NCBI GenBank assembly: GCA_964410905.1
Contig: CAYPIR010000003.1
Location: 15,986-79,985, forward strand
Length of the DNA stretch: 64,000 nucleotides
Reading direction: 5' to 3'
Source: an uncultured bacterium
GTDB taxonomy: Bacteria; Omnitrophota; Omnitrophia; Omnitrophales; Aquincolibacteriaceae
Below the pieces are notes generated by a model, which made no database searches, was not told where the DNA came from, and saw only the letters and a list, made by a program, of their open reading frames with translations. The position numbers and the translations under genes were made by a program. Shown here piece after piece: positions 4,848 through 52,944 of this stretch. How positions within the stretch are numbered: position 1 is the first letter of the stretch; every line of letters begins with the position of its first letter.

Positions 4848-5090
4848 AATTGTAAAAATCAGTAATTTCGTAGACAGATTTTGATACTCGGTCATCCTGC
4901 GCGTTGTTTTTCAACGTCGCAGAATGACATAGACATAACGGACAAGCACCGAAGACACTTCGCCGTTTCGTGCCAACCATTGAGGATTGGCGCAGCCAAC
5001 CGTAAGGCTGCGGCACTTCCTGTAAAAGTTAATGCAAAGCCTATTAAACTTATTGACTTTTTTAATCAAATAAATAAAATGCCGCCTTCA
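4848..5090. repeat. MITE-like repeat, copy A. The left terminal inverted repeat is intact and the right end is degenerate.
   Basis: Starts gaattgtaaaaatcagtaatttcgtagacagattt. Internal modules (cttcgccgtttcgtgccaa...attgg..gcagccaaccgtaagg) are shared with the copies at 44274, 47559 and 13925. Confidence 0.5.
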
Positions 5091-23879: not shown

Positions 23880-23962
23880 ATTCAGTCATTGCTGCAAAAG
23901 TTCATAATTTCGCGGACAAAACTGTTAACTTCTACAAACGCGGCCGATTGGCAATTTATTAA

Positions 23963-34900: not shown

Positions 34901-37900
34901 CTATGCTGATTTTGATATAGCGCCAAGAGCGAGTGCCGATATTTGAAGATTAGTGAATAAAAGTTCTGACGCGGATTGAACCGTTTTAGGCAATTCTTTC
35001 GAAGTAATAAGTTTGTCAATAGCAGCAAGAAAAGCATATGAGCGCATATCGATAGACAAGTCATCCGCTACTATCAATGTTTCATTTCGCAAAAGAGTAG
35101 AAGCTAACTTTTCTAAATTAGGACGCGCGTCTCGCCGCGCGTCATAGACAAGCGTTCTGATAATTTCTCCTTTAATAAAACCGCTAAGCGCGTTCACATC
35201 ATCCGTAACAGAAACCTTTACTCCTTTCCCTTTATTTTGCTGCGATTTTCTGACCGCCATAACTTGTCTGACAAAATTCCGTTCAAGCTCCCGCGCTTCA
35301 ACTTTAGAAATATTAGGTATCAATATTTGTATTTCTATCCCAGGTTTATCGGCAAGTAGCTGCTCCATTATTCGCATCAAAGAGTCATTCAGCGACGGCT
35401 TTTCATCCATCGCGATTGAAATTTTTAGGACATCCGTTTCGCTCTTATTTAGTATTTCGCGTGTTATATCTTCCGCCACCGCATCGCGTTCTTTATCAAC
35501 CCAAGCACCCGTCACAACCTCAGAATAAAACTTTTGCCATCCATTAGACGACATCGCATCAACTTCGCTTTGTCTAAAAACTCCTTTAGCAAACACGACC
35601 GTTACTTCTTTGCCAACTTGAGTTCCTCCGCGGCTTTCTGAGCGCGATAACTCAACAAAGTCTTGTAATGCGGAAGCCATCATCATATTCCCCAAAAAAC
35701 TCATCATAGGAATTACTGTTTCATTAAATTCCGATACGGCTTCTTCCGCGCGATTTCGCATAATTTCCGATTTAGAAAAAATATCGTTTATTTGATCAAA
35801 CAAATCTTCTCTTTCAGGTTCAGTAGCGTGAAACTTATTTAGCAGCTGCACCGCCGTTTTGTTGCTGTCCCAATTCTTTCCCATATGTATTGAAGGAACG
35901 CTCTGGCTTGTGGGCTCAAGCAAGTTATGATTTTCTCCCACTATTACCAACCTTGCCACGCCCAAAATCGGCAAAAGTTCTCCTGCTGTTTCAAGTCCAA
36001 TAATATCCGCGTTTCCCATCGGCTCGCCCTCGGCAAGCCCATTAAATCTTTTGGATTTTGCTCTATCTCCAATTCTGCGAAACTTTATTTTGCTGTCAGA
36101 AAGTCCATATTTTCCTGCTGTTTTCAGCAAAAATTCTTCTACCATTTTACCGCCATGCCTAACTCCCATAATTAAAAGAGGCTTTTGTTCTTTGGGAAAT
36201 TTTGCATACGCTTGAAAAATTTTTTCTATTTCTACATTGTTGGGGCTTGAGGCGACAATAATTATTCTGTCCGCGGAAACTCCCATTATTTTTCGAATTT
36301 CCTCATGTTTCTCATCTGAAATTTTTTGAGGCAAAACATATTTATATGGATCATGAGGGAGAATCAAACGCTCGTCATGAGACTTTCCAAAAAAAGGCGC
36401 ATTGCTAAAACTAATAGCTATTTCATTTTTCTTTCTCGCTGCGCTTTTAGATCTTATGTCATATCCAAGAAAACTTTCTTTAATTAGCCTTTCATTGACC
36501 TCTCCGCCATAAGTCAGAATAACTTGTTTTTCGCTAAGTCCTGTGGCCTTGATAAATCCACGCGTGGAGTTTATCGCCGCGACTTCGGGTATATCAAAAG
36601 TAATTTTAATGTTCTCTTCGTCAAGTCGTTTTATGATTTGAAATCCATGTCGCTTGATATTTTTAAAATCTACATCTTTTCGCATCGCCAGCCCCAGCAC
36701 TTTAGCGACTTCGATTGGATACGCGGCAAACCAATCTCTAATTTGCTTCATATCAAAACCCGCGTAATGAAGCGAATCTACTGCGTCAGCAAAACTAGGC
36801 TCTTTTAAAGAGGCTTCAAAGGAGTTGCTAAACTCTCTCGGCGGATTATTTCTCAAAGCTTCTATAAGAGCTGTTCTCCCCAGCGAATTTCGCGCACCAA
36901 GCCTGGCAATAGTGTTTACCGCCTCGGAAGACCGCAAAAATTTTTCAAAAATATTTTTCATAGAATCTTTTATATAATCCGCAACAAATTGCCCTTCTTC
37001 CAAAGAATCCAACCAAAGTTGTTCTATTTCTGTTTGCAAATCGTTGCCGTTATTTATTCTTTCTTCACTACGGCTTACATCGCCTCGCTCGCCATTAAAA
37101 TATTTATTCCATATGTCAGAGCGAACAAAAAGCAAGGCGCTATACTTGCCCCCAAAGGGCTTGGCGATATCAAAGCCATCTATTTTCGCAGCCACGGCAC
37201 TTTCATCACCTAACTTGTCATAAAATTCATCCAAAACAAACGCAAAATCAGAAATGCCTGTTGTTAAAATCATCGCAGGCTTAAGCCGCATAATTTCTTC
37301 TAAAAATGACAGACCATAGTCATACGCAATATTCATAACAACAATAGGATTTTTCCATTCCTCTGGATTGACTTCCCCAGAATCAATCCCCTCGCCAAGA
37401 TATTTCACTATTTGAAACTGAGAGGCTTCCAAACCATTATTTTTAAGATTAGCGACAAGAGATTTTCGTTTCCTCGCGCCCGGCTCTACATATAAAACTT
37501 TTTTAGGATTATTAAACGCAAGCCCCAATTTCCCGTCATCTGCTCCAAAATCAACTACAGAAAAATTATTTGTAAGCGATGCTATTTTTTGAATTAACGA
37601 TAAAGCAATATGCGTTGACGCAATTGGCGTTTCAATGACATCTCCTTCGCGATCTGTTTCCTCTATGCCTTCATCCTTTTCTCTTCCAAGGACTTCTTTA
37701 ACGGCATAATCGGAAACTCCAAATCCGGGAGACTCCAGCGAGATAAATTTCATGTGCGGGTATTTTCCATGCAGATTCTCAGCAATCGCTCTTGTCTCTC
37801 GTTGTTCTCTATAATAGACAATATCACCATGCCGTCTAAATAACACTACGCGACGACCTTCTAAATCTCCTTCGATAAATTCCAGCGGAATGATTTTCAT

Positions 37901-40900
37901 ATTGTCCTGAGCGGGCGGGTAAAAATCAGCAGCAACATTTTCAAATTTTTCTCGAGCAAGGTTTAAAAAATCATTCATAGGGTTTTCAGTATCTTCGCGA
38001 AGAACTTCCTCAAATAATTTTTGTCTTGTAGATTGAACCAAACCTTTAGAACCAAAAATATTACGCTCAGAATAATTAGAATTTTCAACCGACTTCCTCG
38101 CTTGTCTAATTTCATGTTTTGCTTCGTCTATATTCTCAAATGGTGAAATGTCCAGCATTTCGCTTCGGCCATCATCGCGTTGTATATTTTTAAAATATTT
38201 TTCTAAAGCGTCGCGGAATTCATCTTTATACCGAGCCGGCGCGTAAATCGGCGTCGAATATGAGCCATTGATTAGTTTTACAGGAATGTTTTGTTCACGC
38301 AAAAATTCAAATATTCCTTTTATCTGTTTCTCTATGTTTCCTTTTGAAGGAAGATTAACCACATCCGTTGTCCATTGCCCGTCCCTAGCAAAAAAATCCA
38401 TATCAATCGAGACAATAACTCCTTGCTTTAGCCCCTCAGAATGCTTTGCTATGACAGATTTCCAATCACTTGTCATTGCCGCAAAATCTTTTTCATCGCC
38501 TAAAAGACTTCTGCCTTCGCTTGGGTAAAACCAAAATGCTTCACCGACATCGCCTTCCTTCAACAAAGATGTCACCCAATTAGACAAATCAATGCCGTTA
38601 ATTAATTTAGGAGAATTATCGCTGTGATAATCAAAAAGAAGCATGGGCAGCCCTTTAGAAATTATTCCGTTTTGAACGCCATAATGAATTTGGTTGTAGG
38701 CTCCATCGTGGTTACTCGTAATTTCAAAGATGTTGTTGTTCAATTCACTGGCTCGTGTTTCACTTCTAACAGTGCTAGTCAACATAGAATCGTCTGTTTC
38801 CCGCAACGCTAACAATATCGTTGCTTTTGCCGCGATTTTCATTAATGGAAATTCTACATTTTTAAAGTCATCGACCGCCTGTCGTATGTTCTCTTGTATT
38901 TGTTCTGAATGGTTAAGCGTGGAGTTTATTTGATTAAAAAAATCTCTTTCATTTACGACTTGGACAGCGTTAAACGCACCTAAAATATTTATTGCGCTTC
39001 GGTTATTTGTCCAATTTCCGTCAAAGAAAAGCGTGGGAACCTCTTGGCTCATAGGCTCAAACAAATTACGATTTTCTCCCACTATTGCCAAATCCGCCAC
39101 CGCAAAAAAAGATCTCAACTCACCTTGCGTGTTCAAAATAACTATGTCCGCGTCGCCCATCGGGACCTCTTCGGCAGTTCCATTAAAAGACCCACCTGGT
39201 AACATATCTTTTTCAGATCTGACGCGGATCTTATTTCTTCCGAGCTCAATTTTGCCCATATCCCCTTTAAGAATATCATTAACCAAAGTAGCCTTAGTAT
39301 TGCGCATGCCGACAATTAAAAGTGGTCGTTCGTTTTCGGGATACTCGCTATACGCTTTAATGGTTTTTTTGAGCTCTTCATTTTTCGGGCTTGACAGTAT
39401 TATTATTTTTCTGTTCGGTAAAACTTCCATTTTCTCACGAAGAATTTTGCGCTCCTCAGCCGAAATTTTTTGAGGCAAGGCATATTTATAAGGGTCATAA
39501 GGAATAAACATCGAGGGGAGAATACTAATAACTCTTTCTCCGTCATGAAACGCCGCGACAATTTCGTTCGCGGGATTAAGTTTCCCTCTAATAAATTCTC
39601 TAACTCTAAAATCGGGGAAATTATCTTTTAACATTTTTATGGAAACCTCTCTGTCAGCCAACAAAACAGCTTTTCTCGCATCTATGTTTGCCGCGTTCAA
39701 AAAGCCACGAATGGCGTTCATTGATGCGGCTTCATACACTTGAAATAAAATTGTTTTACTAGTTTTATTCAAACGCTTTGCCAAACTTCTCTCATCGCGC
39801 AATATCTCTATTACCTTTTTCTTGTCTCCTTTGAAAAACAAAAGAAATTCAGTAATTTGGCTTATTGTCTGACGTAACGCGCCGTTTAAATTTGTCTCAC
39901 TGCTGCGGTTTAAAATCTCCTCGCCAACCAAAATTTTTAAGATTTCCCAAGCCTTAGAAAAAAGATCAAAGCCAATGTCTCCATCTATAAAAAGCAAAAA
40001 CTCCGCCACATCAAATGGATTTTGTTTAAAAATTTTTTGAATATCAAAGCCCAAAACTTCTATGACTTTTCCCATTGTTTTAGAAAAAGAAAGAGAATAT
40101 AAAAAATTTTTCACTTCTAATGGAGCTTTAATGAAAGCGGCTTGAATTGTATCAGCGTCCAAAACTTCCGTATTATCAAGGTAAGTAAAGCGCGGCTTCT
40201 TACGTGACGTTTCATGAGAGAATGAAAACAACGCTTTTAAAAATACATCGCGAGATGTCTTAATTGATTCCCTAACAGTCTCCAAACCTAAGACCTTGTG
40301 TTTCGTAAGCTCGCGTAAAGCGTCAAAAACTAATAAACCATAGGAAAAATTATCAACGGAAATGCTTTCCACCATTTTAAAAAATAAAGCCGTATCCGCA
40401 CCTAATATTTCGCATAAAAAATCCGCCCCCAAAATATCCGCTAATTCTTTTAAGGTTTCTACATCTGCCGTCTTTATTTCCGGAAAATCCTTTGCCATAT
40501 ACATGGAAGTTGCTGCTATCAAATCTTCTACGGTTTTCCGCGTTTCACTTCGTGGGCGTTGAGCTTTTTCTAAGTATTTTTGCGCGACATCTTTTCGGAC
40601 AAACAAAACAGCTCGATAATTTCCTTGATTTGGTATTTCAAAAAAGTGTCCGCCTGAAGCAATAATTTGCGGCTGATATGAAGTCGCGAGCATTTCCTTT
40701 TGGGCGTCTTTGGCAAAAAGACTTCCAAAAATATCTTCGTATCCAAGATGAGAAAAATATTCGTGTCCCGTTGTAAGAACCATCGCGGGCTGAAGTTTTT
40801 TTATTGTTTCCAAATATCCGCCGCCGTAATCATAGGCAACATTCATTACGACAAATGCATCTTTCCAATCTTTCGGATTAATATCGTCTTCCAAAGACGC

Positions 40901-43396
40901 CCAAAGCGATTCAATAACTTTATATTTTGAGTTGTCCCAACTGTTGCTCTTTAAATTACATTCGATAATTTTTCTTTTACTTTCATCTTTTTCGACAAAC
41001 AAAACTTTGGGTGCGTCTTTAAAAACAAGCCCCAGTTTGCCGTCATCCGAACCAAAATCAACCATAGGCAAGTCTTTAACTTGAGGCATGACTTCTTGAA
41101 TAATAGAAAGTGCGGCATGCGTTGTCGCGGGAGGCGTCAAAACGCCTCGTTCAGTGCTTTCAAAAAATTCTGGATATTCCAATGAAACGAATATGAATTG
41201 TGAAAACCTATTTTTAATTTCACGGACCATGTCGGCAGCGTCATTACTATCGCGGTAATAAATAACATTTCCGTGCCTGCGAAAAATAAGCCCAAGCCGT
41301 CCGTCTATAGTCGCTTCAATAAATTCCAGCGGGAATATTTCCCCTTCAATGTTTGCCGTTGGGTAGAAATCTATGGCAGCATCTTGGAATTTTTGCCGCG
41401 CCCGCGCGAGCAAATCCGCCATCGGGCTGTTCTTGTCTATTTTTATAATATCTTCAACAAAAGCCCGTCTCTTTGCTGGCGGCAAATCTGAAAAAATTTT
41501 GTTTGCAAGTCCCTCGCCCAAAGTCCTTCCGAGCATAATATGTCGAATTAGGTCTTCCGGCGAAGCGTCCGTAACCCATTCATTAGCATTGTCTGCGGTC
41601 CCCTTAACGCCTGACATTGCCTCTCTTACTTCAGAGCGGATAAATTCAGCTGTGTCCGCATCAAAACCTTCTGTGCCGCTTAAAACAGGAGAAAATCTGA
41701 CAAAAGAATCGGAGAGATTGTCATTCCGCGCGTTGTTTTTCAACATTGAAGAATCCAAAAGATTACTCTCTTGGGTTCCGATCTCCTTATCGGGACTAGT
41801 CAATGCTCGCTGCGTTGACACAAATAGTCGCTGCTCAATCGCCGCGTCCAATTTAAATTCGTCGTCGTGTAATGGCAAGTCGGTTTTACCGTTTCTATTC
41901 GTTGCTCCAAGCGTCATCGTTTTTATGTAATTATCATTATTAGTTTTGCTCGTTATGCGCGGCAAAATTCGAACATATGATAAATTTTTATTTTTAAAAA
42001 TATTTTCTAATCCCGCTGTATGAAAACCTCCTGTTATTAAAATTGCGCTCTGAATATTTAAATCCTTTATCTTCGCGAACATTTGTTCAAACATCACATC
42101 GTCACGTTTTATAGCAACTTCATAAAACTTTAACGCAAGCCTAACCGCGTAAGGCAAATCATTTTCAGCCAAAACACCCCGAGCTTCTTGATATTCCTCA
42201 TGCGTAAGCTCCAGTTCCAACAAGCTTTTAAGAAGTAGATATTTTTTGTACTGTGCTACTATTCTTTGCTCGTCATGAGTTTTTGAAAGCGCCGTCAAAA
42301 TTATCTCGTTTATTCTTTTTGTTTCTCTCAAAAGCTCTTCAGCTCGAATTTCTTGGCCCAAAAGCCTTGCCCCTAAAAGTTTTACAAGCGCCGGATAATC
42401 CTGAAATTCAAACCCTAAATCCTGTGTTTCATTTAAAAACTTCTCAAGAAACGAGCGAATATCTTTTTCTTCTTCAAGAAAATTCTTAAAAGCCGCTTGA
42501 TAATCTTCACTGAAATTATTTTCAGCCAGCCATGTGATAAGTTTGGTTTGCTCTTTTTTTATTGTCTCCCGTGTTCCCTCGGTTTGTTTCTCTAATTCTT
42601 GCAGTTTGAAAAATCTCACAAGCTGCGGAAAATCATGTTGTTCGCGAGCGTTTGATAAATCTATATTTAAAATATCAAGAGCTGTTTTTTTCAGAAAACC
42701 AAGCCGTGAAATAAAATCTTTTTGTATCTCAGATTGAAAAATCCATTCACGGAAAAAATTTTTAAAATTAGGGTTGGTGTTTTTTGCAACTTCTTGTTTA
42801 AGACTTTGTTTTAATTTAAGCAAAATTTTTGAAGCTTCTTTTTTGTGAGAGTAAACCTCTCTAAAAAGCTTTAATTCTTCAAGATAAAGTTCTCTATTCT
42901 CTACGCCAAAAACCTCCGCGCCGGACTTATCAGAAAACAGAAATCTCTCAACGCCTCCGACAATTCCCTTTTCGGTTAATTTATCTATGAGTTTTAAATT
43001 TGCATCTTCTTCGTTGAAAAATCGGAGCAATTCTTTTTTCTGTTTCCCAACTCCGCCTTCTACAAAAATAGTTTTTATTCCATATTCTTTTTCAAGATGT
43101 CGCAAAATTTGCTCTTGATTTTTCTGCGCCTCGACACTTCCGTGCGCGTCTTCTATGTGAACAATAGAAATTGGATAAGAAAATTTCGCTTCATTTTCCG
43201 GTTGAGAAATATACATGTCTTTGATACTTCCAACGCAAAGAGGTATTTCAATTTTAGAAATTATTGAGGGAGCGCGATTTTGGCTAAAATCTATGGCGGG
43301 CGCGGCAAACGCAACATTTGTCCAAAAGAAAACGATGGACATAAAAATAGCGATATTTTGCCGCGCTAACAGTTTATATTTTTTACATTTAGACAT
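34901..43396 (-). CDS. 2831-aa N-terminally anchored giant multidomain protein. It has a domain shared with the 964-aa protein, two methyltransferase-like domains, two WaaA/KdtA-like GT-B domains, and an arginase/deacetylase-like middle segment.
   Basis: Single ORF with an ATG at 43396. Internal duplication aa 658-1530 vs 1807-2580. Motifs DTQGEL..ADLAIVGEN and IIILSSPKNEE resemble WaaA. Confidence 0.75.
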   Translation of the reverse strand: MSKCKKYKLLARQNIAIFMSIVFFWTNVAFAAPAIDFSQNRAPSIISKIEIPLCVGSIKDMYISQPENEAKFSYPISIVHIEDAHGSVEAQKNQEQILRHLEKEYGIKTIFVEGGVGKQKKELLRFFNEEDANLKLIDKLTEKGIVGGVERFLFSDKSGAEVFGVENRELYLEELKLFREVYSHKKEASKILLKLKQSLKQEVAKNTNPNFKNFFREWIFQSEIQKDFISRLGFLKKTALDILNIDLSNAREQHDFPQLVRFFKLQELEKQTEGTRETIKKEQTKLITWLAENNFSEDYQAAFKNFLEEEKDIRSFLEKFLNETQDLGFEFQDYPALVKLLGARLLGQEIRAEELLRETKRINEIILTALSKTHDEQRIVAQYKKYLLLKSLLELELTHEEYQEARGVLAENDLPYAVRLALKFYEVAIKRDDVMFEQMFAKIKDLNIQSAILITGGFHTAGLENIFKNKNLSYVRILPRITSKTNNDNYIKTMTLGATNRNGKTDLPLHDDEFKLDAAIEQRLFVSTQRALTSPDKEIGTQESNLLDSSMLKNNARNDNLSDSFVRFSPVLSGTEGFDADTAEFIRSEVREAMSGVKGTADNANEWVTDASPEDLIRHIMLGRTLGEGLANKIFSDLPPAKRRAFVEDIIKIDKNSPMADLLARARQKFQDAAIDFYPTANIEGEIFPLEFIEATIDGRLGLIFRRHGNVIYYRDSNDAADMVREIKNRFSQFIFVSLEYPEFFESTERGVLTPPATTHAALSIIQEVMPQVKDLPMVDFGSDDGKLGLVFKDAPKVLFVEKDESKRKIIECNLKSNSWDNSKYKVIESLWASLEDDINPKDWKDAFVVMNVAYDYGGGYLETIKKLQPAMVLTTGHEYFSHLGYEDIFGSLFAKDAQKEMLATSYQPQIIASGGHFFEIPNQGNYRAVLFVRKDVAQKYLEKAQRPRSETRKTVEDLIAATSMYMAKDFPEIKTADVETLKELADILGADFLCEILGADTALFFKMVESISVDNFSYGLLVFDALRELTKHKVLGLETVRESIKTSRDVFLKALFSFSHETSRKKPRFTYLDNTEVLDADTIQAAFIKAPLEVKNFLYSLSFSKTMGKVIEVLGFDIQKIFKQNPFDVAEFLLFIDGDIGFDLFSKAWEILKILVGEEILNRSSETNLNGALRQTISQITEFLLFFKGDKKKVIEILRDERSLAKRLNKTSKTILFQVYEAASMNAIRGFLNAANIDARKAVLLADREVSIKMLKDNFPDFRVREFIRGKLNPANEIVAAFHDGERVISILPSMFIPYDPYKYALPQKISAEERKILREKMEVLPNRKIIILSSPKNEELKKTIKAYSEYPENERPLLIVGMRNTKATLVNDILKGDMGKIELGRNKIRVRSEKDMLPGGSFNGTAEEVPMGDADIVILNTQGELRSFFAVADLAIVGENRNLFEPMSQEVPTLFFDGNWTNNRSAINILGAFNAVQVVNERDFFNQINSTLNHSEQIQENIRQAVDDFKNVEFPLMKIAAKATILLALRETDDSMLTSTVRSETRASELNNNIFEITSNHDGAYNQIHYGVQNGIISKGLPMLLFDYHSDNSPKLINGIDLSNWVTSLLKEGDVGEAFWFYPSEGRSLLGDEKDFAAMTSDWKSVIAKHSEGLKQGVIVSIDMDFFARDGQWTTDVVNLPSKGNIEKQIKGIFEFLREQNIPVKLINGSYSTPIYAPARYKDEFRDALEKYFKNIQRDDGRSEMLDISPFENIDEAKHEIRQARKSVENSNYSERNIFGSKGLVQSTRQKLFEEVLREDTENPMNDFLNLAREKFENVAADFYPPAQDNMKIIPLEFIEGDLEGRRVVLFRRHGDIVYYREQRETRAIAENLHGKYPHMKFISLESPGFGVSDYAVKEVLGREKDEGIEETDREGDVIETPIASTHIALSLIQKIASLTNNFSVVDFGADDGKLGLAFNNPKKVLYVEPGARKRKSLVANLKNNGLEASQFQIVKYLGEGIDSGEVNPEEWKNPIVVMNIAYDYGLSFLEEIMRLKPAMILTTGISDFAFVLDEFYDKLGDESAVAAKIDGFDIAKPFGGKYSALLFVRSDIWNKYFNGERGDVSRSEERINNGNDLQTEIEQLWLDSLEEGQFVADYIKDSMKNIFEKFLRSSEAVNTIARLGARNSLGRTALIEALRNNPPREFSNSFEASLKEPSFADAVDSLHYAGFDMKQIRDWFAAYPIEVAKVLGLAMRKDVDFKNIKRHGFQIIKRLDEENIKITFDIPEVAAINSTRGFIKATGLSEKQVILTYGGEVNERLIKESFLGYDIRSKSAARKKNEIAISFSNAPFFGKSHDERLILPHDPYKYVLPQKISDEKHEEIRKIMGVSADRIIIVASSPNNVEIEKIFQAYAKFPKEQKPLLIMGVRHGGKMVEEFLLKTAGKYGLSDSKIKFRRIGDRAKSKRFNGLAEGEPMGNADIIGLETAGELLPILGVARLVIVGENHNLLEPTSQSVPSIHMGKNWDSNKTAVQLLNKFHATEPEREDLFDQINDIFSKSEIMRNRAEEAVSEFNETVIPMMSFLGNMMMASALQDFVELSRSESRGGTQVGKEVTVVFAKGVFRQSEVDAMSSNGWQKFYSEVVTGAWVDKERDAVAEDITREILNKSETDVLKISIAMDEKPSLNDSLMRIMEQLLADKPGIEIQILIPNISKVEARELERNFVRQVMAVRKSQQNKGKGVKVSVTDDVNALSGFIKGEIIRTLVYDARRDARPNLEKLASTLLRNETLIVADDLSIDMRSYAFLAAIDKLITSKELPKTVQSASELLFTNLQISALALGAISKSA

Positions 43397-44251: not shown

Positions 44252-44273
44252 ATTTATTAAAAACTTGCGAGAA

Positions 44274-44672
44274 TTGTAAAAATCAATAATTTCGTGAACA
44301 GATTTAATTCTAAAGTTATCCTGCGCATTGTTATTTAAACGTCGCAGGATCCAGGTGTTGAGCGCCTCTGGATTCTGCAACGCCACTACGTTTCGTGCAG
44401 AATGACCAGATTGTCTCGCTTTTGTAGGCGGAATGACATAACGGACAAGTGCCGAAGGCGCTTCGCCGTTTCGTGCCAATCCATTGGGGATTGGTGCAGT
44501 CAACCGTAAGGTTGCTGAAAAGACGCTACGGCGAAGCCGAGCGCTTGCCCTGTATTTGCGTATCGGACGCAAATGCGGTACTTCCTGTATCGATGCATTG
44601 GGCATCGATGCGGAATGACGTAAAAATAAAAAACCTTCAACAAATCTGTCTACGAAATTATTGGCTTTTACA
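44274..44672. repeat. MITE-like element, copy B, ~400 bp with ~30-bp terminal inverted repeats
   Basis: Left end aattgtaaaaatcaataatttcgtgaacagattt. Right end aaatctgtctacgaaattattggcttttacaat. Confidence 0.6.
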
Positions 44673-44757
44673 ATAAAAAACGACATCAATGACAAACTGC
44701 GCCTCAAAAAGCGAGGAGGTTTGAAATCGATGCCGTTTTTTTGTTTTTCTTGGCTAC

Positions 44758-47433
44758 TTAAAAATCATACCTCACGGTTGCGTAATAGGTGTGGCTTATA
44801 TAACGATCGCGAATTTCCATATCCCAATTACCCGTGAGAGTGAAATTCCCTTTTGATAAAAAGGCAATTTCCGCTCCGAGTAAAAGTCCGCTTTTAGACG
44901 GTTTCGCGCCGCGCACAAGAAAGGAATTTCCGCCGCCAGCAAAACTCGCGCGCGTCTCGTATCGCTTCCCAATATAATCATAAAGCCAAGCGCCTTTGAT
45001 TGACGGAACAAATGTTCCAACTTCTGTTTTGATTTGGTATTGCAGTTTAAGCCCAAGCGTTTGTTCTAATGTGTGATACCCCTTCCCTTTAACCGATAAA
45101 TCCAAATCGCCCGCGCCATTTTCGTCATATCCATGAAGCCGCAAATAACTATATTCCAGTCCGACAAATGGCGTAATCTCCAAATGCTTAAGCTCCGCCG
45201 ATGTCATCGTATAACCTAGTTCAAACTTTGAACTATATTCCTGCCCGCTATGTTCCGCTTTTGCCACGCGGTCAAGCGCGCTTGTTATTGCTATTTCTCG
45301 GCGGCTCTTATATTCGTCCCATGTAAAAGCTATCATGCTGTCGGCATACCAAAAATTCTCGCCGTAGTTTCTGACCGCCGCTCTCTGGTTGGCTCCATAA
45401 GCCCTGCCGGCGCACAAATCAAGCGAGTCATAGCTGCCATACAAACTAAAACTGTAACTATTAATTTGTTCCGTGGGATTTCCCGGCCGTTTTGAGTCAA
45501 CATCCGCGTAACCATATCCCGCCGCCGCGCCGACTCTAAAGTGGCTGTCCAGCTGCCTATCTATACCGACCGTTGTCCCATAGGAGTTTGACGTAAAACC
45601 CTCAATGCCTTTTCGCGTCTTCTGCTCCATATGATTCCCTAAGCCTTGCAGCCAGACACCAAGCCCGGTTATCGTCTCGCCTGATGAAATTCCGCTTTGG
45701 AAAAATCCGTGCCGCACGCTGCCCAAGCGATTACTAACTGAACGCATATGATTCCCCGTCAGCATTTTGCTTCCGCGCGCGATTCCTGAACTTATATCCG
45801 GCATCATTGTCGAAAGCGCTTTTTGCACCTCTTCAGAACTCATCCCATCTAAAGCATTAAGCACATCCAGCATATCGCCTTGGGCGTTTGGCATATTGTC
45901 TAAAACTTCGCCAACCATTCTTGAGTTTTCATCCTTTCCAGCATCGCTCGCGAATCCGCCCGCGCGGCTGAGCATAAGACTCAATATCCCATCATGAATG
46001 CTTTCAGTCCCTGTATACCGGTCTGAGAAAAGCGTCAGCAAACCATCAAAATCTAATGTGCCGCCCGCGCTCAAAATATCTACTGTCGTTCCGTTAGCAT
46101 AATATCCCGATGCAAGCGAGACATCGATGTCCCCGCTAACATCTATATCACCGTCCGCAACAACAGAACCATAATCATTTTCCGCTATCGTGAGCGCAAG
46201 CGTAGAACCGGCAGCTTGGTCAAAATCCCCGCCGATAAGTAACTGCGTTGTCCCGAGTTCAAGAGTGCCAGCATCCAATAAAACATTGCCTGTCCCAAGC
46301 GCCTGGGAATTTCCAACAATTACTGTTCCGGCGCTAACTGTCGTCCCGCCTTCATATGTATTCGCTCCAGAAATAGTAAGCGTGCCATCTCCTTCTTTTG
46401 TTAAACTACCGTCCCCGCTTATAACCCCAGAAAAAATTGTATCCTCGTCATTTCCTCCGACTGTCAAATCAGCTGTTCCTAAATCTACATCGCCAGCTCC
46501 GCTTAACCCTTGCACAGTTTGATCATAATCATTCAAGTCGAACGAAGCGCCAGATTGAACTGCTAAACCAGAACTAGTGGAAATTATATCCGCAGCTCCT
46601 GCTTGTAATGTTCCAGCACTAACTGTCGTTCCGCCTGTATATGAATTAGCTCCAGAAAGAGTGAGTGTTCCTGTCCCAGTCTTTGTCAAACTTCCTGAAC
46701 CGCTTAACCCCCCACTCATTGCAGCCACACTTTCATTGCCTATAGTCCCGCCATTAGCTTCCAACGTCCATGCACCAGCGTAACTATCTCCTGTTAAAAT
46801 CAACCTTCCGCCGTTAAGAGTTCTGCTAGTCGAATATAAAGTATCAGCAAATATTGATAATTCGCCCCCAGTATTGATAGAGATAACGTTTGAAAATAAA
46901 CTTCCACCCTCAGCAATAGTTACCGTCCCTTCATTATTCACAGTTAGGTTGCCTATAAGATTTCCGCCAGAGTTGACAATAACAGCACCTTCCGGCGATA
47001 TAACAATTCCTCCATATGAGGCAACATCTCCACCGTCTGGATTGGAACCGCCACTAATTGTAAATATTCCGTGATCAAAGTTAAATACACCCAGTGTAAT
47101 CCAGTTTCCACCTGCTAAAGTGAGATCCGCAAGAGTCGAATTAACATTGGCGCCATTGACATGCGCCGAACCAATAGAAATATCGGCATCTTGGTCGATG
47201 GTAATATCATCGTCATGTGTAGGCACCGTTGAGGTGTCCCAGTTAGAAGAGTCAGTCCACGTGGAACCATCTCCGCCACCAGTCCAAGTTACAGTGGCAG
47301 CAAATGAAACTGGCGAGAAAATAGAAAGGAGAAAAATGAGAGAAGTAAGAAGAGTTAAACTGCGGAAGAAAAACGAACGCGGATAACTATTTGTTTGTTT
47401 GTTTGTTTGTTTGTTTGTTTGTTTGTTTAGCAT
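44758..47433 (-). CDS. autotransporter (type Va) outer-membrane protein
   Basis: Signal peptide. G/T-rich passenger with TGTGTLTLSGANSYTGGTTVSAGTL repeats. C-terminal beta-barrel ending ...YATVRYDF. Confidence 0.85.
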   Translation of the reverse strand: MLNKQTNKQTNKQTNSYPRSFFFRSLTLLTSLIFLLSIFSPVSFAATVTWTGGGDGSTWTDSSNWDTSTVPTHDDDITIDQDADISIGSAHVNGANVNSTLADLTLAGGNWITLGVFNFDHGIFTISGGSNPDGGDVASYGGIVISPEGAVIVNSGGNLIGNLTVNNEGTVTIAEGGSLFSNVISINTGGELSIFADTLYSTSRTLNGGRLILTGDSYAGAWTLEANGGTIGNESVAAMSGGLSGSGSLTKTGTGTLTLSGANSYTGGTTVSAGTLQAGAADIISTSSGLAVQSGASFDLNDYDQTVQGLSGAGDVDLGTADLTVGGNDEDTIFSGVISGDGSLTKEGDGTLTISGANTYEGGTTVSAGTVIVGNSQALGTGNVLLDAGTLELGTTQLLIGGDFDQAAGSTLALTIAENDYGSVVADGDIDVSGDIDVSLASGYYANGTTVDILSAGGTLDFDGLLTLFSDRYTGTESIHDGILSLMLSRAGGFASDAGKDENSRMVGEVLDNMPNAQGDMLDVLNALDGMSSEEVQKALSTMMPDISSGIARGSKMLTGNHMRSVSNRLGSVRHGFFQSGISSGETITGLGVWLQGLGNHMEQKTRKGIEGFTSNSYGTTVGIDRQLDSHFRVGAAAGYGYADVDSKRPGNPTEQINSYSFSLYGSYDSLDLCAGRAYGANQRAAVRNYGENFWYADSMIAFTWDEYKSRREIAITSALDRVAKAEHSGQEYSSKFELGYTMTSAELKHLEITPFVGLEYSYLRLHGYDENGAGDLDLSVKGKGYHTLEQTLGLKLQYQIKTEVGTFVPSIKGAWLYDYIGKRYETRASFAGGGNSFLVRGAKPSKSGLLLGAEIAFLSKGNFTLTGNWDMEIRDRYISHTYYATVRYDF
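47390..47428 (-). repeat. tetranucleotide repeat, (TTTG)9 on the plus strand and (AAAC)9 in the coding sense, within codons 3-14 of the autotransporter
   Basis: tttgtttgtttg... encodes NKQTNKQTNKQTN immediately after ATG-CTA. Confidence 0.9.
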
Positions 47434-47558
47434 ACATTGTCAAACCTCACAAGGTTGGGGATCAAAATAAAAGAATACAAAACGGTTTCACATTTTACTA
47501 TTTCGGCAAAAAATTTAAATGCTTAAATACAAATAAATACAAATAACTTTTGTCATTA

Positions 47559-48146
47559 GTGTAAAAGTCAATAATTTCGCAGACAGATTTGTTGAGGGTT
47601 TTTGTTTTTTTATTATCGCTGGCGAAAGCGAGACAATCTGGTCATTCTGCCCCAACGCCCAATGCATCGATACAGGAAGTCCCGCATTTGCGTCCGATAC
47701 GCAAATACAGGGCAAGCGCTCGGCTTCGCCGTAGCGTCTTTTCAGCAACCTTACGGTTGACTGCACCAATCCCCAATGGATTGGCACGAAACGGCGAAGC
47801 GCCTTCGGCACTTGTCCGTTATGTCATTCCGCGTGAAGCGAAGCGGAGTCGCGGAATCCACAAGGCAAGACGAGGCGTTCCTTGAGCCTCGCTTGGCAGT
47901 GGTTGCACATAGGTGCAACTAGAGGCTCTCAACACTTGGATCCTGCAACGTCCGCTTTAGCGGTCGCGCAGGATGACGTAATGGACGAGAGCGGTGAAGC
48001 CGGCTCGCTATTACGTATCGGCGAATTCAAACTAGACGAGACGACAAAGTCTCGCTTGTTTGTGTCAATGCAACAAGTATTGACTTGTCGCCGATGCTGC
48101 TTAACTAAATCTGTCTACGAAATTATTGACTTTTACAGGGATGATG
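47559..48146. repeat. MITE-like element, copy C, ~590 bp. Its internal modules are inverted relative to copy B.
   Basis: Left end gtaaaagtcaataatttcgcagacagattt. Right end aaatctgtctacgaaattattgacttttaca. Internal sequence is the reverse complement of copy B modules. Confidence 0.6.
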
Positions 48147-48155
48147 AAACCGCTG

Positions 48156-49430
48156 CTAGAAAGATTCGCCGCGGATAAGGTCGAGGTAGGTTTCGCGTTT
48201 GCGGATAACTTTAAAAGATTTTCCTTTGACCAAAACTTCTGCAACGCGAGGACGAGAATTGTAGTTTGACGACATTGTCATTCCATACGCGCCTGTCGAC
48301 ATCAGCGTGATAAAATCTCCTGCCTTTAGAGATGGAAGTTTGCGGTCTTTTGCAAAAAAATCTCCACTTTCGCAGATTGGGCCGACAATGTCATAAATTT
48401 TTTGTTCGCTTTTTTTATTTCTCTTAACTTGCCAAACTTGATGAAACGCTCCGTAAAAAGACGGGCGAATAAAATCATTCATTCCCGCATCGGTAATCGC
48501 AAAATTTTTTGTCCCGGTTTCTTTCACATAAGTAACGCGCATCGCAAGAAGCCCGCTGTTAGCGGAAATAAATCTGCCCGGCTCAAAAATAATTTGAAAT
48601 TTTCTACCTTTAAAAAGCGGAAGTGTTTTTTGGGCAAATTCATCTGCCGTTTGCGGTTTTTCATCACTATAAATTACGCCAAGCCCGCCGCCAAGATTTA
48701 GAAACTTAATCTCAATGCCATCTTTTGCTAATTCATCAATAAACTTCAATACTTTTTTAAACGCCTCGACAAACGGTTTGCCCGATTCTATTTGCGAGCC
48801 GATGTGGACGTGAATACCTGAAACTTTCGCATATTTGAACTCTTGAGATTTTTTGAAAATTTTCCAAGCCGCCTCAAAATCAATGCCAAACTTATTTTCA
48901 GATTTTCCCGTGGTAATGTATGCGTGTGTGTGCGGATCCACGTTAGGGTTTATACGAAGTGATACATGGACTTTGCATTTCGTTTTTTTCGCGATAGCGT
49001 CTATTTGCTCCAGTTCAGGAATTGATTCAACGTTAAAAAGGAGTATTCCCGCCTTAATTGCTTCGCGAATTTCGCGCTCCGTTTTCCCGACTCCGGCATA
49101 AACAATTTTTTTGCTCAAACAACCAGCTTTTTGGGCACGAAAAAGTTCACCGCCGGAAACAATATCAAGCCCCGCGCCTTTTGTTACAAGAGTTTTTAAA
49201 ACAGCGATATTTGAATTGGATTTTACAGAGTAACAAATAATCGGCTTTATTGAACTAAATGCTTTTTGCAGCCGCACGAGATGCTCTTCAAAAGAGGTTT
49301 TGCTGTAAACATATACAGGCGTTCCAACCTTTTTGATGATTTTGGAGACAGGAACGTTTTCGCAATATAGCTCATCATTTTTATATTGAAACTGATGAAT
49401 TTTTCCCGGAGCAATTTGTGAGGGTTTCAT
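48156..49430 (-). CDS. lysA: diaminopimelate decarboxylase
   Basis: YSVKSN, GGGLG, EPGR and CESGD motifs. ATG at 49430 overlaps the argH stop as ATGA. The track start at 49451 is TTG. Confidence 0.85.
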   Translation of the reverse strand: MKPSQIAPGKIHQFQYKNDELYCENVPVSKIIKKVGTPVYVYSKTSFEEHLVRLQKAFSSIKPIICYSVKSNSNIAVLKTLVTKGAGLDIVSGGELFRAQKAGCLSKKIVYAGVGKTEREIREAIKAGILLFNVESIPELEQIDAIAKKTKCKVHVSLRINPNVDPHTHAYITTGKSENKFGIDFEAAWKIFKKSQEFKYAKVSGIHVHIGSQIESGKPFVEAFKKVLKFIDELAKDGIEIKFLNLGGGLGVIYSDEKPQTADEFAQKTLPLFKGRKFQIIFEPGRFISANSGLLAMRVTYVKETGTKNFAITDAGMNDFIRPSFYGAFHQVWQVKRNKKSEQKIYDIVGPICESGDFFAKDRKLPSLKAGDFITLMSTGAYGMTMSSNYNSRPRVAEVLVKGKSFKVIRKRETYLDLIRGESF

Positions 49431-50809
49431 AAAGATAATTTTTTCTTCCAATCAGCGATTTCTTTTTTAACTCTATCCGGATTAGAGCTTCCGAATGTTT
49501 TTTTGCCCTTTACTGAAATTTTGGCATCGAAAATTTTTAATATGTCTTTTTCAAATTTAGAAGAAAAATTTTTCCATTCCGCCAAATTCCAATCTCGTTG
49601 TCTTTTGCCCGACTCAATTGCAAAGCGAACAGTTTCGCCGACCAAATGATGCGCTTCGCTAAATGGAACTTTTTTTCGAACTAGATATTCCAATATATCC
49701 GTCGCGAACAAACTGTCATCATCAAGCGCAGTTTCCATAGCGCGTTTATTCCATTTAGCAGATTCTATTGTTTTTGCTAAAAGTTCCAAGGCCGCTTCGG
49801 TTTTCTTAATCGCGTCAAAAAGCCCAGGTTTATCTTCTTGCAAATCACGGTTATAAGCAAGCGGCAAACCTTTTTGCACTACAAGAATGCTCTGTAAATA
49901 TCCAAAAATTGCGCCTGTCCGCCCGCGAATGAGTTCAAATACATCAGGATTTTTTTTCTGCGGCATAAGACTAGACCCCGTGGCAAATGCATCATCTAAG
50001 TCCACGAATGAAAATGCCTCGTTATTCCATAAAATAAAATCTTCTGAAAGGCGAGAAAAATGCATCCACAAAATAGAAAGCGCGCTTAAAATTTCCGCAA
50101 AAATGCCTCTATCGCTAACTGCCGCTATGCTGTTTGCGGCAATGCTAGTAAATCCAAGTTCGCGGGAAAGAAATTCTCTGTCAATGGGAAGCGCCGAGCC
50201 GGCAAGAGCCGCAGATCCAAGCGGTAAAACGTTAAGACGTTTCATTAAATCCGCAAGACGGCTTCTATCTTCTTCAAACATCTCAACATAGGCTAGCAAA
50301 TGATGCGCAAGCAAAATCGGCTGCGCTTTTCTTAAATGCGTCATCCCCGGCAAAAGCGAGTCGCCTGATTTTTCACTGACTTTCAGCAGCGTTTTTTCTA
50401 ATTGCCTGATAGCCGCCCAAATTTCCGCGACTTTTTCTCTTAAATAAATTCTTGTTGATGTGATAACAAGGTCGTTTCGGCTTCTACCGGTATGTATTTT
50501 TTTTGCCACATCACCGACTTTTTTTTCCACTTCGGATTGAATAAGCGTGTGAATGTCTTCATATTTATTAACTAAGCCGTCGAATGTTTTTTTATTAAAT
50601 GTTTTCCCGACAAGCGTAAGCCCTTTAATCATTTTTTTTGATTCAGCGGTTGAAATGATTTTTATTTTAGCGAGCATTTTAGCGTATGCAATGTTGACGC
50701 GAATTTCGGAATCAAAAAGCTCTTTGTCAGTGACGAGAGAATAACTAAACTTTTTTAAAGTCGGGTGCATTTCTTTTTTAAATCGTCCGCCCCACATTTG
50801 TTTTGGCAT
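49427..50809 (-). CDS. argH: argininosuccinate lyase
   Basis: Fumarate-lyase family, 460 aa, GSSLMPQKKNPD signature. Confidence 0.9.
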   Translation of the reverse strand: MPKQMWGGRFKKEMHPTLKKFSYSLVTDKELFDSEIRVNIAYAKMLAKIKIISTAESKKMIKGLTLVGKTFNKKTFDGLVNKYEDIHTLIQSEVEKKVGDVAKKIHTGRSRNDLVITSTRIYLREKVAEIWAAIRQLEKTLLKVSEKSGDSLLPGMTHLRKAQPILLAHHLLAYVEMFEEDRSRLADLMKRLNVLPLGSAALAGSALPIDREFLSRELGFTSIAANSIAAVSDRGIFAEILSALSILWMHFSRLSEDFILWNNEAFSFVDLDDAFATGSSLMPQKKNPDVFELIRGRTGAIFGYLQSILVVQKGLPLAYNRDLQEDKPGLFDAIKKTEAALELLAKTIESAKWNKRAMETALDDDSLFATDILEYLVRKKVPFSEAHHLVGETVRFAIESGKRQRDWNLAEWKNFSSKFEKDILKIFDAKISVKGKKTFGSSNPDRVKKEIADWKKKLSL

Positions 50810-50830
50810 ATTCTCTCCTCGTTTTGCGAG

Positions 50831-52018
50831 TTATTTTTTCTTGGGCAAAACTTCGTAAGGAAGTCCCCAAAGTTTAATAAAGCCTTCCGCCGCGGTTCTA
50901 TCAAAAAGATCGCCTGTGGAATATGTCGCGAGTTTTTCTTGATAAAGCGCGTAAGGCGATTTACGACCTACGCAAATCGCGTTTCCTCGTTGAAGTTTAA
51001 ATCTGACCGTTCCCGTAACACGATGCTGATTCGTCGCAAAAAACGCATCGAGCGCCTCGCGAAGAGGAGAAAACCAAAGTCCGTAATAAACAACTTCGGC
51101 ATATTTTTCGCTCAACACCCGTTTGTAATGAAGAAATTCTCTATCTAATACAAAACTTTCAAGTTCGTCGTGAGCTTTGAGAAGAAGGTCTGCTGCCGGA
51201 GCTTCATAGACTTCGCGGGATTTAATTCCGACAAGACGGTTTTCAATCATATCAAATCTGCCAACTCCATATTCTCCCGCAACTTCATTTAAATGTTCAA
51301 TCAACGCAACAAGCGGCATTTTTTTGCCGTCAACTTTTGTAGGGATGCCTTCGTCAAAAGTGATTTCGACATAGCGAGGCTTTGACGGCGCGGCTTCCGG
51401 CGAGCGAGTCATAATATAAGCGTCTTCTAACGGTTCAACCATTGGATCTTCCAAAATTCCTGCTTCAATCGCAATCCCCCAAATGTTCATATCGATTGAA
51501 TATGGACTTTTTTTCGTAACATCGATGGGAATTTTATGTTTCTTTGCGTAATCAATTTCTTCTTCGCGCGTCCTAAATTCCCATTCACGTAGCGGCGCAA
51601 TAATTTTCAGTTTTGGGTCAAGCGCGCGAACTCCAACTTCAAGCCGAACTTGATCATTGCCTTTTCCCGTGCAGCCGTGAGCGACCGCAACCGCGCCTTC
51701 TTTATGCGCGATATCGACAAGATGTTTTGAAATCATCGGTCTGCCAAACGCCGTAGCAAGAGGATATTTTCCCTCATATCTTGCTCCCGCAAAAATCGCG
51801 CGGGTTAAATATTCTTCGGCAAGTTCCTTTTTCAAATCCAAAATATAGCTCTTAATTGCGCCCGCCGCTTTTGCGCGCTTAATGAGTTTGTTTTTGTCTT
51901 TTACTTCACCAATAAACGCGGAAAAACAAATCACATCGTAGCCGTATTTTTCTTTAAGCCATTTCACCGCACAGGAAGTATCGAGTCCGCCGGAATACGC
52001 TAAAACTATTTTCTTCAT
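50831..52018 (-). CDS. argG: argininosuccinate synthase
   Basis: MKKIVLAYSGGLDTS. Confidence 0.9.
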   Translation of the reverse strand: MKKIVLAYSGGLDTSCAVKWLKEKYGYDVICFSAFIGEVKDKNKLIKRAKAAGAIKSYILDLKKELAEEYLTRAIFAGARYEGKYPLATAFGRPMISKHLVDIAHKEGAVAVAHGCTGKGNDQVRLEVGVRALDPKLKIIAPLREWEFRTREEEIDYAKKHKIPIDVTKKSPYSIDMNIWGIAIEAGILEDPMVEPLEDAYIMTRSPEAAPSKPRYVEITFDEGIPTKVDGKKMPLVALIEHLNEVAGEYGVGRFDMIENRLVGIKSREVYEAPAADLLLKAHDELESFVLDREFLHYKRVLSEKYAEVVYYGLWFSPLREALDAFFATNQHRVTGTVRFKLQRGNAICVGRKSPYALYQEKLATYSTGDLFDRTAAEGFIKLWGLPYEVLPKKK

Positions 52019-52944
52019 TTAACTGCTCCTTGGTTAAAAAGATATAAGAGAACCGCTTTTTGAATATGCAATCTATTTTCCGCCTCATCAAAAACAATGC
52101 AGTTTTTACTTTCCATTATTTCGTCCGTGATTTCTTCGCCTCTATGCGCTGGCAGACAGTGCATTACCACAGCTGTTTTTTTCGCGTAAGAAAGAAGCTT
52201 TGAATTTACCTGCATACTTTTAAAATCGCGTAGTTTTTGTCTCCGGATAGATTCTTCACCCATGCTCACCCAAACATCGGTATAAACCGCATCAGCATTT
52301 TTCACCGCAGCTACTGGGTCAAAAAACGCTTCGATTTTTGCTCCTGTTTTTTTCGCGATAACGCGAGCGTCCGCTATTACTTTGGGATCAGGCTGATATT
52401 TTTTAGGTGTAGCATAACGAATATGCGCCCCCAACTTTGCCGCAAGCAATACCAGCGAATGCAAAACGTTATTTCCGTCTCCGACAAATGCGAGCACGGG
52501 ATTTTCCTTTTCGGGAAATTTTTCATAAATAGTCATATAGTCGGCAAGCGCTTGGCAAGGATGCTCCAAATCGCTTAAGCCGTTTATGACGGTTTTGCCG
52601 AAATAATCCTGAAACTCCGTAATAGTGTTGTGCGAAAAAGTCCGCATAACCACTCCCGACAAATATCGAGACAAAACCCGCGCGACATCACGCACTTCTT
52701 CCCTAACTCCTAATTTTATATCTTCCGGTCCGAGATAAATCGCGCCCGCTCCCATTGAATAAATTCCCGCTTGAAAAGAAACCCAAGTTCTAGTTGAAGG
52801 TTTTTCAAATATGAAACCAAAAATATGACCTTCAAGAGCGTCGCGGACTTTTTGAGGCTGGGCTTTAACTTTCGCCGCAAGTTTCATGATTTTTCTAATT
52901 TCCTCAGAGCTGAGGTCGTTTATGGAAATAAGTGATTTAAACAT
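52015..52944 (-). CDS. argF: ornithine carbamoyltransferase
   Basis: STRTW and HCLP motifs. ATG at 52944 with AAGGCGG Shine-Dalgarno. The track start at 53013 is TTG. Confidence 0.85.
   Translation of the reverse strand: MFKSLISINDLSSEEIRKIMKLAAKVKAQPQKVRDALEGHIFGFIFEKPSTRTWVSFQAGIYSMGAGAIYLGPEDIKLGVREEVRDVARVLSRYLSGVVMRTFSHNTITEFQDYFGKTVINGLSDLEHPCQALADYMTIYEKFPEKENPVLAFVGDGNNVLHSLVLLAAKLGAHIRYATPKKYQPDPKVIADARVIAKKTGAKIEAFFDPVAAVKNADAVYTDVWVSMGEESIRRQKLRDFKSMQVNSKLLSYAKKTAVVMHCLPAHRGEEITDEIMESKNCIVFDEAENRLHIQKAVLLYLFNQGAVK

Follow-up and report, generated by a model that had tools for sequence, protein, structure and literature searches.

A predicted three-state phase-variation switch in the signal-peptide region of an Omnitrophota autotransporter gene

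Introduction

Does an uncultured environmental bacterium vary a surface protein by the slippage of a simple sequence repeat, as pathogens do? The question is raised by a 64-kb stretch of a metagenome-assembled genome (MAG) of the phylum Omnitrophota (64,000 nucleotides of contig CAYPIR010000003.1, assembly GCA_964410905.1; hereafter the window, at its full length), in which a gene for an 891-residue autotransporter opens with nine perfect AAAC units, placed between its start codons and the hydrophobic core of its predicted signal peptide. From the architecture set out below, we consider it on balance probable that this locus is a translational phase-variation (contingency) switch acting on a surface autotransporter.

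Omnitrophota are ultra-small, uncultured bacteria that are thought to be predators or epibionts of other microbes. Nearly all known cases of phase variation driven by repeats come, to our knowledge, from pathogens and commensals adapted to a host, for example Neisseria, Haemophilus, Campylobacter, Helicobacter and Mycoplasma. The literature that we searched contained nothing joining Omnitrophota with phase variation, and brought Omnitrophota and autotransporters together in a single paper, on the giant adhesion proteins of these presumed predators. The GroEL encoded in the window is 88–93% identical to many MAG proteins, of which the named ones belong to Candidatus Omnitrophota. A preliminary description of the window had called such a locus unexpected in this lineage and, with this host and this literature, that judgement was a reasonable one. 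We present the locus as a known type of mechanism predicted in a new and unexpected uncultured lineage.

Results and discussion

A pure and exceptional repeat tract

On the minus strand, positions 47437–47380 of the window read ATGtATGCT(AAAC)9AAATAGTTATCC, and from the second of the two start codons (ATG2; Table 1) the gene runs as ATG-CT-(AAAC)9-AAA-TAGTTATCC. Tandem Repeats Finder described the tract as a period-4 array of 9.8 copies with 100% matches and 0 indels, so that both direct reading and software confirm the nine perfect AAAC units that the preliminary description had placed near the 5′ end of the gene. The tract forms codons 3–15 of the open reading frame (ORF), contains no stop codon in any frame of the minus strand, and is anchored on its two sides by GACAATGTATGCT and ATAGTTATCCGCG. 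Published screens take five or more tetranucleotide units as the mark of a putatively phase-variable gene (PMC6321876), a cut-off for potentially hypermutable length that the 9.75 perfect units found here exceed.

Chance offers little explanation for such an array, as 100 dinucleotide-preserving shuffles gave an expectation of 0 matches to a probe of just five AAAC units. It was the sole tetranucleotide array of note that Tandem Repeats Finder reported in the window, where a census of simple sequence repeats (SSRs) returned no further di-, tri-, tetra-, penta- or longer-unit repeat past the usual thresholds and homopolymers reached a maximum of exactly 8 nt (14 A8/T8 runs and none of 9 nt or more). 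Nor did 174 kb of other loci that we examined contain a tetranucleotide tract of at least four units. The AAAC tract is real, pure and exceptional for its host genome. Apart from it, the window looks depleted of slippage-prone sequence.

The tract encodes part of an exported surface protein

The product of the gene begins MLNKQTNKQTNKQTNSYPRS... and carries a PF03797 autotransporter beta-domain at residues 593–870 (window 44824–45657; E 3.4e-54), preceded by a passenger with PATR repeats that weakly matches the passenger structure of IcsA (5ke1); the protein also matches TIGR01414 and TIGR02601. By hydropathy, residues 1–24 are polar and are followed by a hydrophobic core at about residues 25–41 (17 residues) and then by VSFA↓A, where the arrow marks the putative cleavage site. 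The N-terminus can thus be written MLNKQTNKQTNKQTNSYPRSFFFRS-LTLLTSLIFLLSIFSPV-SFA↓A, with a long, polar and positively charged n-region, the h-region LTLLTSLIFLLSIFSPV and a small-x-small cleavage motif. Signal peptide (by hydropathy and the VSFA↓A motif), passenger and C-terminal barrel are therefore joined in one polypeptide, as in classical type Va autotransporters, and the barrel, the PATR repeats, the TIGR01414 match and the signal-peptide-like N-terminus together point to a surface-exposed product. The n-region consists of the repeat-encoded residues plus SYPRSFFFRS, which makes the repeat the coding sequence of the first, polar part of the predicted signal peptide.

Two other roles for the tract were considered and rejected. 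No Rfam family matched at or near it, and the 5′ region of the mRNA folds worse than shuffled controls (z = +2.4); this lack of structure means that nothing favours a different, RNA-based role. Programmed ribosomal frameshifting was set aside because AAAC is, by our reading, unfit to serve as an X XXY YYZ slippery site.

Two start codons in two frames give three predicted states

A second ATG (ATG1), overlooked in the preliminary description, lies 4 nt upstream of the ORF start in another frame. We rebuilt the locus with n = 3–15 repeat units and translated each version. With n = 0 mod 3, which includes the nine units of the window, the full protein was read from ATG2 (MLNKQT...); at n = 9 this is the intact 891-aa ORF, in agreement with the original view of the assembled sequence as in frame and ON, and ATG1 yields merely a 16-aa peptide. 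With n = 2 mod 3 (5, 8, 11, 14), the full protein was read from ATG1 instead (MYAKQT...) with an identical signal peptide, the product at n = 8 again being 891 aa long with its signal peptide intact. With n = 1 mod 3 (7, 10, 13), the readings from both starts ended early, within 8–32 codons, at one or other of the two stop codons that follow the tract (TAG and TAA; Table 1), leaving the gene OFF. A change in unit number inside this ORF consequently alters the frame, and in one length class of three it truncates the product from both starts.

The sequence on either side of the tract leaves little room for rescue. Upstream, a TAA at the first repeat unit shuts off the third frame (Table 1), so that at n = 1 mod 3 no upstream start reaches the ORF. 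Downstream, the first in-frame ATG, GTG or TTG past the tract comes only after the signal peptide (a GTG, codon 70), and a protein started there would lack that peptide altogether; with no in-frame start separating tract and hydrophobic core, export requires that the tract be read in frame. The preliminary description had likewise seen no in-frame ATG ahead of the signal peptide, and its proposal of a contingency-locus architecture for a surface antigen is upheld by a tetranucleotide tract in the signal-peptide region with no rescuing start behind it. Its expectation that gain or loss of a single unit would frameshift the whole protein survives for a gain (n = 10 is OFF) and fails for a loss, since n = 8 is in frame with ATG1 and losing one unit does not turn the gene off. 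An upstream start that kept the frame whatever the unit number would have spoken against a switch of any kind; ATG1 rescues one frame, not all.

The two starts probably differ in strength. Those genes of the window whose starts agree with independent gene calls have AGGAG or GAGGAG 5–10 nt before the start codon; the spacing of ATG1 from the GAGG motif upstream (7 nt) falls within that range, and ATG1 is therefore probably the better initiation site and the stronger start. If so, the assembled n = 9 may represent the lower-expression of two ON states. A promoter-like site, a consensus match, sits in the 27% GC spacer that runs from the upstream repeat element to the start codons.

Table 1. Coordinates of the features at and around the autotransporter gene (positions in the window)
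Feature	Position	Strand	Remarks
Autotransporter gene, classical (type Va)	44758–47433	minus	891 aa; from the ORF and its domain matches
Predicted Sec signal peptide	47299–47433	minus	Residues 1–45; from hydropathy, with a putative cleavage site
Simple sequence repeat (AAAC)9 + AAA	47390–47428	minus	Perfect; encodes NKQTNKQTNKQTN, residues 3–15
TAA 11 codons past the tract	47355–47357	minus	Ends one out-of-frame reading (...QIVIRVRFSSAV*)
TAG directly after the tract	47387–47389	minus	Ends the other out-of-frame reading
TAA closing the third frame	47427–47429	minus	Immediately before and overlapping the first repeat unit
ATG2	47431–47433	minus	11 nt from GAGG; ORF start at n = 9
ATG1	47435–47437	minus	Other frame, 4 nt upstream of ATG2; 7 nt from GAGG
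GAGG, Shine-Dalgarno-like motif	47445–47448	minus	Sequence reading; putative function
Promoter-like TTTAAA-16-TAAAAT	47492–47519	minus	Consensus match
MITE-like element, 402 nt, terminal inverted repeats	44273–44674	plus	Just downstream of the autotransporter stop codon
Second MITE-like element, 602 nt	47548–48149	minus	In the opposite orientation to the first; its end lies 111 nt before ATG1

Proposed mechanism

In the mechanism that we propose, the perfect (AAAC)9 tract would lengthen or shorten in 4-nt steps through slipped-strand mispairing during replication and, lying as it does downstream of both start codons and ahead of the hydrophobic signal-peptide core, would shift the frame with every unit change. 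Two ATGs that are 4 nt apart and in different frames would turn this into a three-state switch, in which the full protein is made from the probably weaker ATG2 at n = 0 mod 3, from the probably stronger ATG1 at n = 2 mod 3, and from neither start in an exported form at n = 1 mod 3. A clonal population would then always mix cells with and without the adhesin-like protein, hedging against whatever targets or depends on it, be it phage, contact with prey or host, or aggregation. The tract with its purity and uniqueness, the frames, the stops, the two starts and the protein family can be read directly from the window; a useful rate of slippage in this host, the relative strengths of the starts and the nature of the selective agent are what we infer from them. 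The architecture is well supported as a prediction, and it is as a prediction that we put forward the switching itself.

Comparison with known phase-variable genes

In the Neisseria autotransporter genes autA and autB, AAGC repeats lie inside the signal-sequence DNA right after the start codon; phase variation has been shown experimentally, and isolates differ in unit number, which sets whether the gene is in phase (PMC5118866). The Haemophilus autotransporter gene lav carries CAAG tracts of 14–30 units (PMC2651432), the same repeat in another notation, as (AAGC)n = (GCAA)n = (CAAG)n. The Omnitrophota gene resembles AutA and AutB of Neisseria meningitidis and AutB and Lav of Haemophilus influenzae in having a tetranucleotide repeat in autotransporter signal-sequence DNA; in those systems slipped-strand changes in unit number shift the frame and turn expression ON or OFF (PMC5118866), which for our locus is predicted from the sequence. 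It differs from them in its repeat unit (AAAC rather than AAGC), in its host (an uncultured environmental member of the Omnitrophota rather than a human mucosal proteobacterium), in having two starts in two frames, and in being known from one sequence alone. Among its 120 best homologues there was no Neisseria or Haemophilus protein, although a direct pairwise comparison was not run. By its sequence, this is a locus predicted to work like AutA, AutB and Lav, and not a member of their orthologous group.

The paired starts recall a different precedent, the H. influenzae gene licA (lic1), in which initiation codons precede the CAAT repeats in two of the three frames (PMC2212159). ATG1 and ATG2 likewise occupy two frames with the third closed, and in both systems two of the three tract-length classes are ON and one is OFF, as described for licA (PMC2212159) and as simulated here. 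Unlike our autotransporter, the licA product is a cytoplasmic choline kinase that is not exported, and the strengths of the licA starts have been studied, whereas ours are judged from Shine-Dalgarno spacing.

Repeats in the signal-peptide coding part of outer-membrane protein genes have further parallels. In Neisseria Opa genes, (CTCTT)n repeats lie in that part, and frame shifts switch expression ON and OFF. The part encoded by the repeat is the hydrophobic core in Opa and the polar n-region in the Omnitrophota protein. Helicobacter pylori OipA is described as having a (CT)n repeat in its signal-peptide coding part and being ON or OFF by frame (PMC10564699). Both systems share the position of the repeat with our locus and differ from it in their penta- and dinucleotide units and in their products, which are small beta-barrels, not autotransporters.

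Relatives, strains and the reality of the tract

Ten proteins of the window were present in a public protein collection, with entries from an NCBI contig of 145,256 bp and from the Logan assemblies of sequencing runs SRR11845623, SRR11845624 and SRR27197510. The 891-aa autotransporter was absent from the same collection under every start and tract length tried, in contrast to these ten neighbours on its contig; among the possible reasons, the source record may have no call for the gene or may list it as a pseudogene, and repeat-containing 5′ ends may lead to the dropping of such genes. Logan contigs of SRR11845623 and SRR11845624 were 100% identical to the window and those of SRR27197510 99.6–99.96% identical, which indicates a second strain in the latter run. 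One SRR27197510 contig (L012) differed from window positions 48108–52499 by 17 mismatches in 4392 nt, the second strain thus belonging to the same species although found in an unrelated run. The SRR27197510 strain is the natural comparator for tract length.

In all three runs, the Logan contigs that carry the neighbouring genes stop at elements resembling miniature inverted-repeat transposable elements (MITE-like repeats) beside the autotransporter gene, and this bears on whether the tract, or its length, could be an artefact of MAG assembly or consensus, in which case the ON state and the frames would describe no real molecule. The source is indeed a MAG, and the Logan assemblies match the flanks at 100%, break at the neighbouring repeats and never cover the tract, which as a 39-nt sequence of period 4 would by our reasoning form a cycle in a k = 31 de Bruijn graph that such assemblies cannot span. 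Against this, 39 nt is far below read length and standard assemblers with larger k resolve such tracts, while at the assembled n the 891-aa ORF is whole and begins with a proper signal peptide, an outcome that an arbitrary collapse would reach one time in three, or two in three if ATG1 is counted. We regard an artefact as very improbable.

Scans of a one-genome-per-species collection and of Joint Genome Institute (JGI) metagenomes, for which the protein was aligned to its best homologue, returned distant relatives only, at no more than 51% identity and over short segments. An exhaustive HMMER search of 1.84 billion representatives recovered mostly giant PATR-repeat proteins. Its closest match (P0425, 70% identity) covers an internal part of a protein as a fragment, and an N-terminal periodic tract was found in no relative from that search. 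The best homologue (P0001, 56% identity) starts at the residue aligned to position 57, and so is without the first ~56 residues and the signal peptide. A start of this kind could be taken for the gene call of an OFF state; we did not count it as evidence after a control with P0049, an Omnitrophota homologue that is also annotated without a signal peptide, and whose DNA has no SSR and shows, upstream and in frame, an ordinary ATG that gives a good signal peptide. Truncated calls are by this control routine annotation errors, and P0001 gives no evidence. The annotated start of P0049 (MDD5546463.1; L020, 2758–6711, GCA_028716565.1, JAQUPL010000003.1) is an internal GTG, from which the ORF extends 81 codons upstream to an ATG that yields a signal peptide of normal type (MDTSSHKKWPARVFILFISCLLSFSASANA), and a pair of tRNA-like sequences is found just upstream.

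Switch or incidental microsatellite

Several of these results weigh against a working switch. A single copy of the tract sequence is known and, as the source is a metagenome-assembled consensus, nine may be just the modal or assembled length. Ten simulated protein variants (n = 5, 6, 8, 9, 11 and 12, edge-truncated forms and the OFF-state product from the GTG at codon 70) were absent from the collection, which holds 15 billion proteins, and no close orthologous locus emerged from the genome and metagenome collections scanned. A periodic N-terminus was present in none of the 120 homologues, nor in the closer representatives of the exhaustive search, and the tract is therefore not conserved in the family. 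One locus in 64 kb does not show a genome-wide strategy of contingency genes.

The main rival explanation draws on the same observations. The tract may be an incidental microsatellite that expanded by chance in a tolerant polar n-region, with frameshifts purged so that the population is effectively always ON. It is established for Sec signal peptides that the n-region tolerates polar insertions, no homologue that we examined carries the tract, the window holds no second SSR locus, and contingency loci are not reported for this environmental lineage in the literature that we searched. Yet a run of nine perfect units in an otherwise SSR-lacking genome would be hard to keep if slippage had ceased, since a tract that no longer slips would be broken up by point mutations. 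This tract also stands at the sole position where each unit change acts in an all-or-none manner, and two starts in two frames with a TAA in the third reproduce the licA design, which would be a coincidence if the tract were neutral. We judge an incidental microsatellite unlikely on these grounds, and assembly artefact and the decay of a mobile cassette, which is taken up with the neighbourhood of the gene below, to be minor alternatives.

Significance

If the predicted switch operates, the most classical form of repeat-driven phase variation would be present in an uncultured environmental phylum whose presumed way of life is predation on, or attachment to, other microbes. The autotransporter would be marked as a protein under fluctuating selection, and hence as a candidate for contact with prey or host or for a phage receptor. 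We advance more tentatively the possible generalisation that Omnitrophota use a pathogen-style, three-state contingency locus to vary a surface adhesin stochastically; localised hypermutation as a form of bet-hedging would then extend beyond immune evasion in animal hosts to predation, attachment between microbes or phage evasion in environmental candidate phyla. Loci of this kind are poorly handled by gene callers and by k-mer assemblers, so that reports of contingency genes in MAGs may systematically fall short of their real number. The runs in which the host organism was sequenced are publicly available.

Neighbourhood of the gene

Two full copies of the MITE-like family, in inverted orientation, bracket the autotransporter gene (Table 1), and short-read contigs break exactly there. 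The family has terminal inverted repeats of ~31–43 nt (TGTAAAAGTCAATAATTTCG...ACAGATTT) and a relatively GC-rich common core that is 86–97% identical between copies, and had no Pfam or Rfam match. Further partial copies lie at 4849–5011 and 13968–14026, with a match resembling the terminal inverted repeat at 23893.

These flanking elements raise a further alternative, in which the gene is part of a recently acquired or decaying cassette between MITE-like repeats and the repeat tract, derived from the donor, would mark progress towards a pseudogene and not a switch that can be reversed. The gene has a GC content of 46% against 42% for the window, and the closest relative by LysA (74% identity; L016, 2997–5928, GCA_964508905.1) has unrelated genes downstream of lysA, in the place taken here by the MITE-flanked autotransporter gene, encoding ORF6N, DUF1016/SNase and a BrnT toxin, from which the region after lysA appears to be a variable island. 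On the other side, the 891-aa ORF is uninterrupted and each of its autotransporter domains has a good score, and its GC content at third codon positions (GC3, 0.40) lies inside the 0.34–0.44 span of the housekeeping genes of the window. Named Omnitrophota autotransporters are found among the more distant homologues only, the best homologues standing at 56% and 70% identity, and mobility would in any case be compatible with phase variability. A decaying cassette is in our view quite improbable. Horizontal transfer inferred from composition was rejected, as GC3 is unremarkable.

Three large ORFs of the window, all on the minus strand, were without any Pfam match: 14024–16918 (964 aa), 32040–33914 (624 aa) and 34901–43396 (2831 aa). 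Large proteins that lack annotation have been reported as characteristic of Omnitrophota, and the 2831-aa ORF adjoins both sodB and the autotransporter region.

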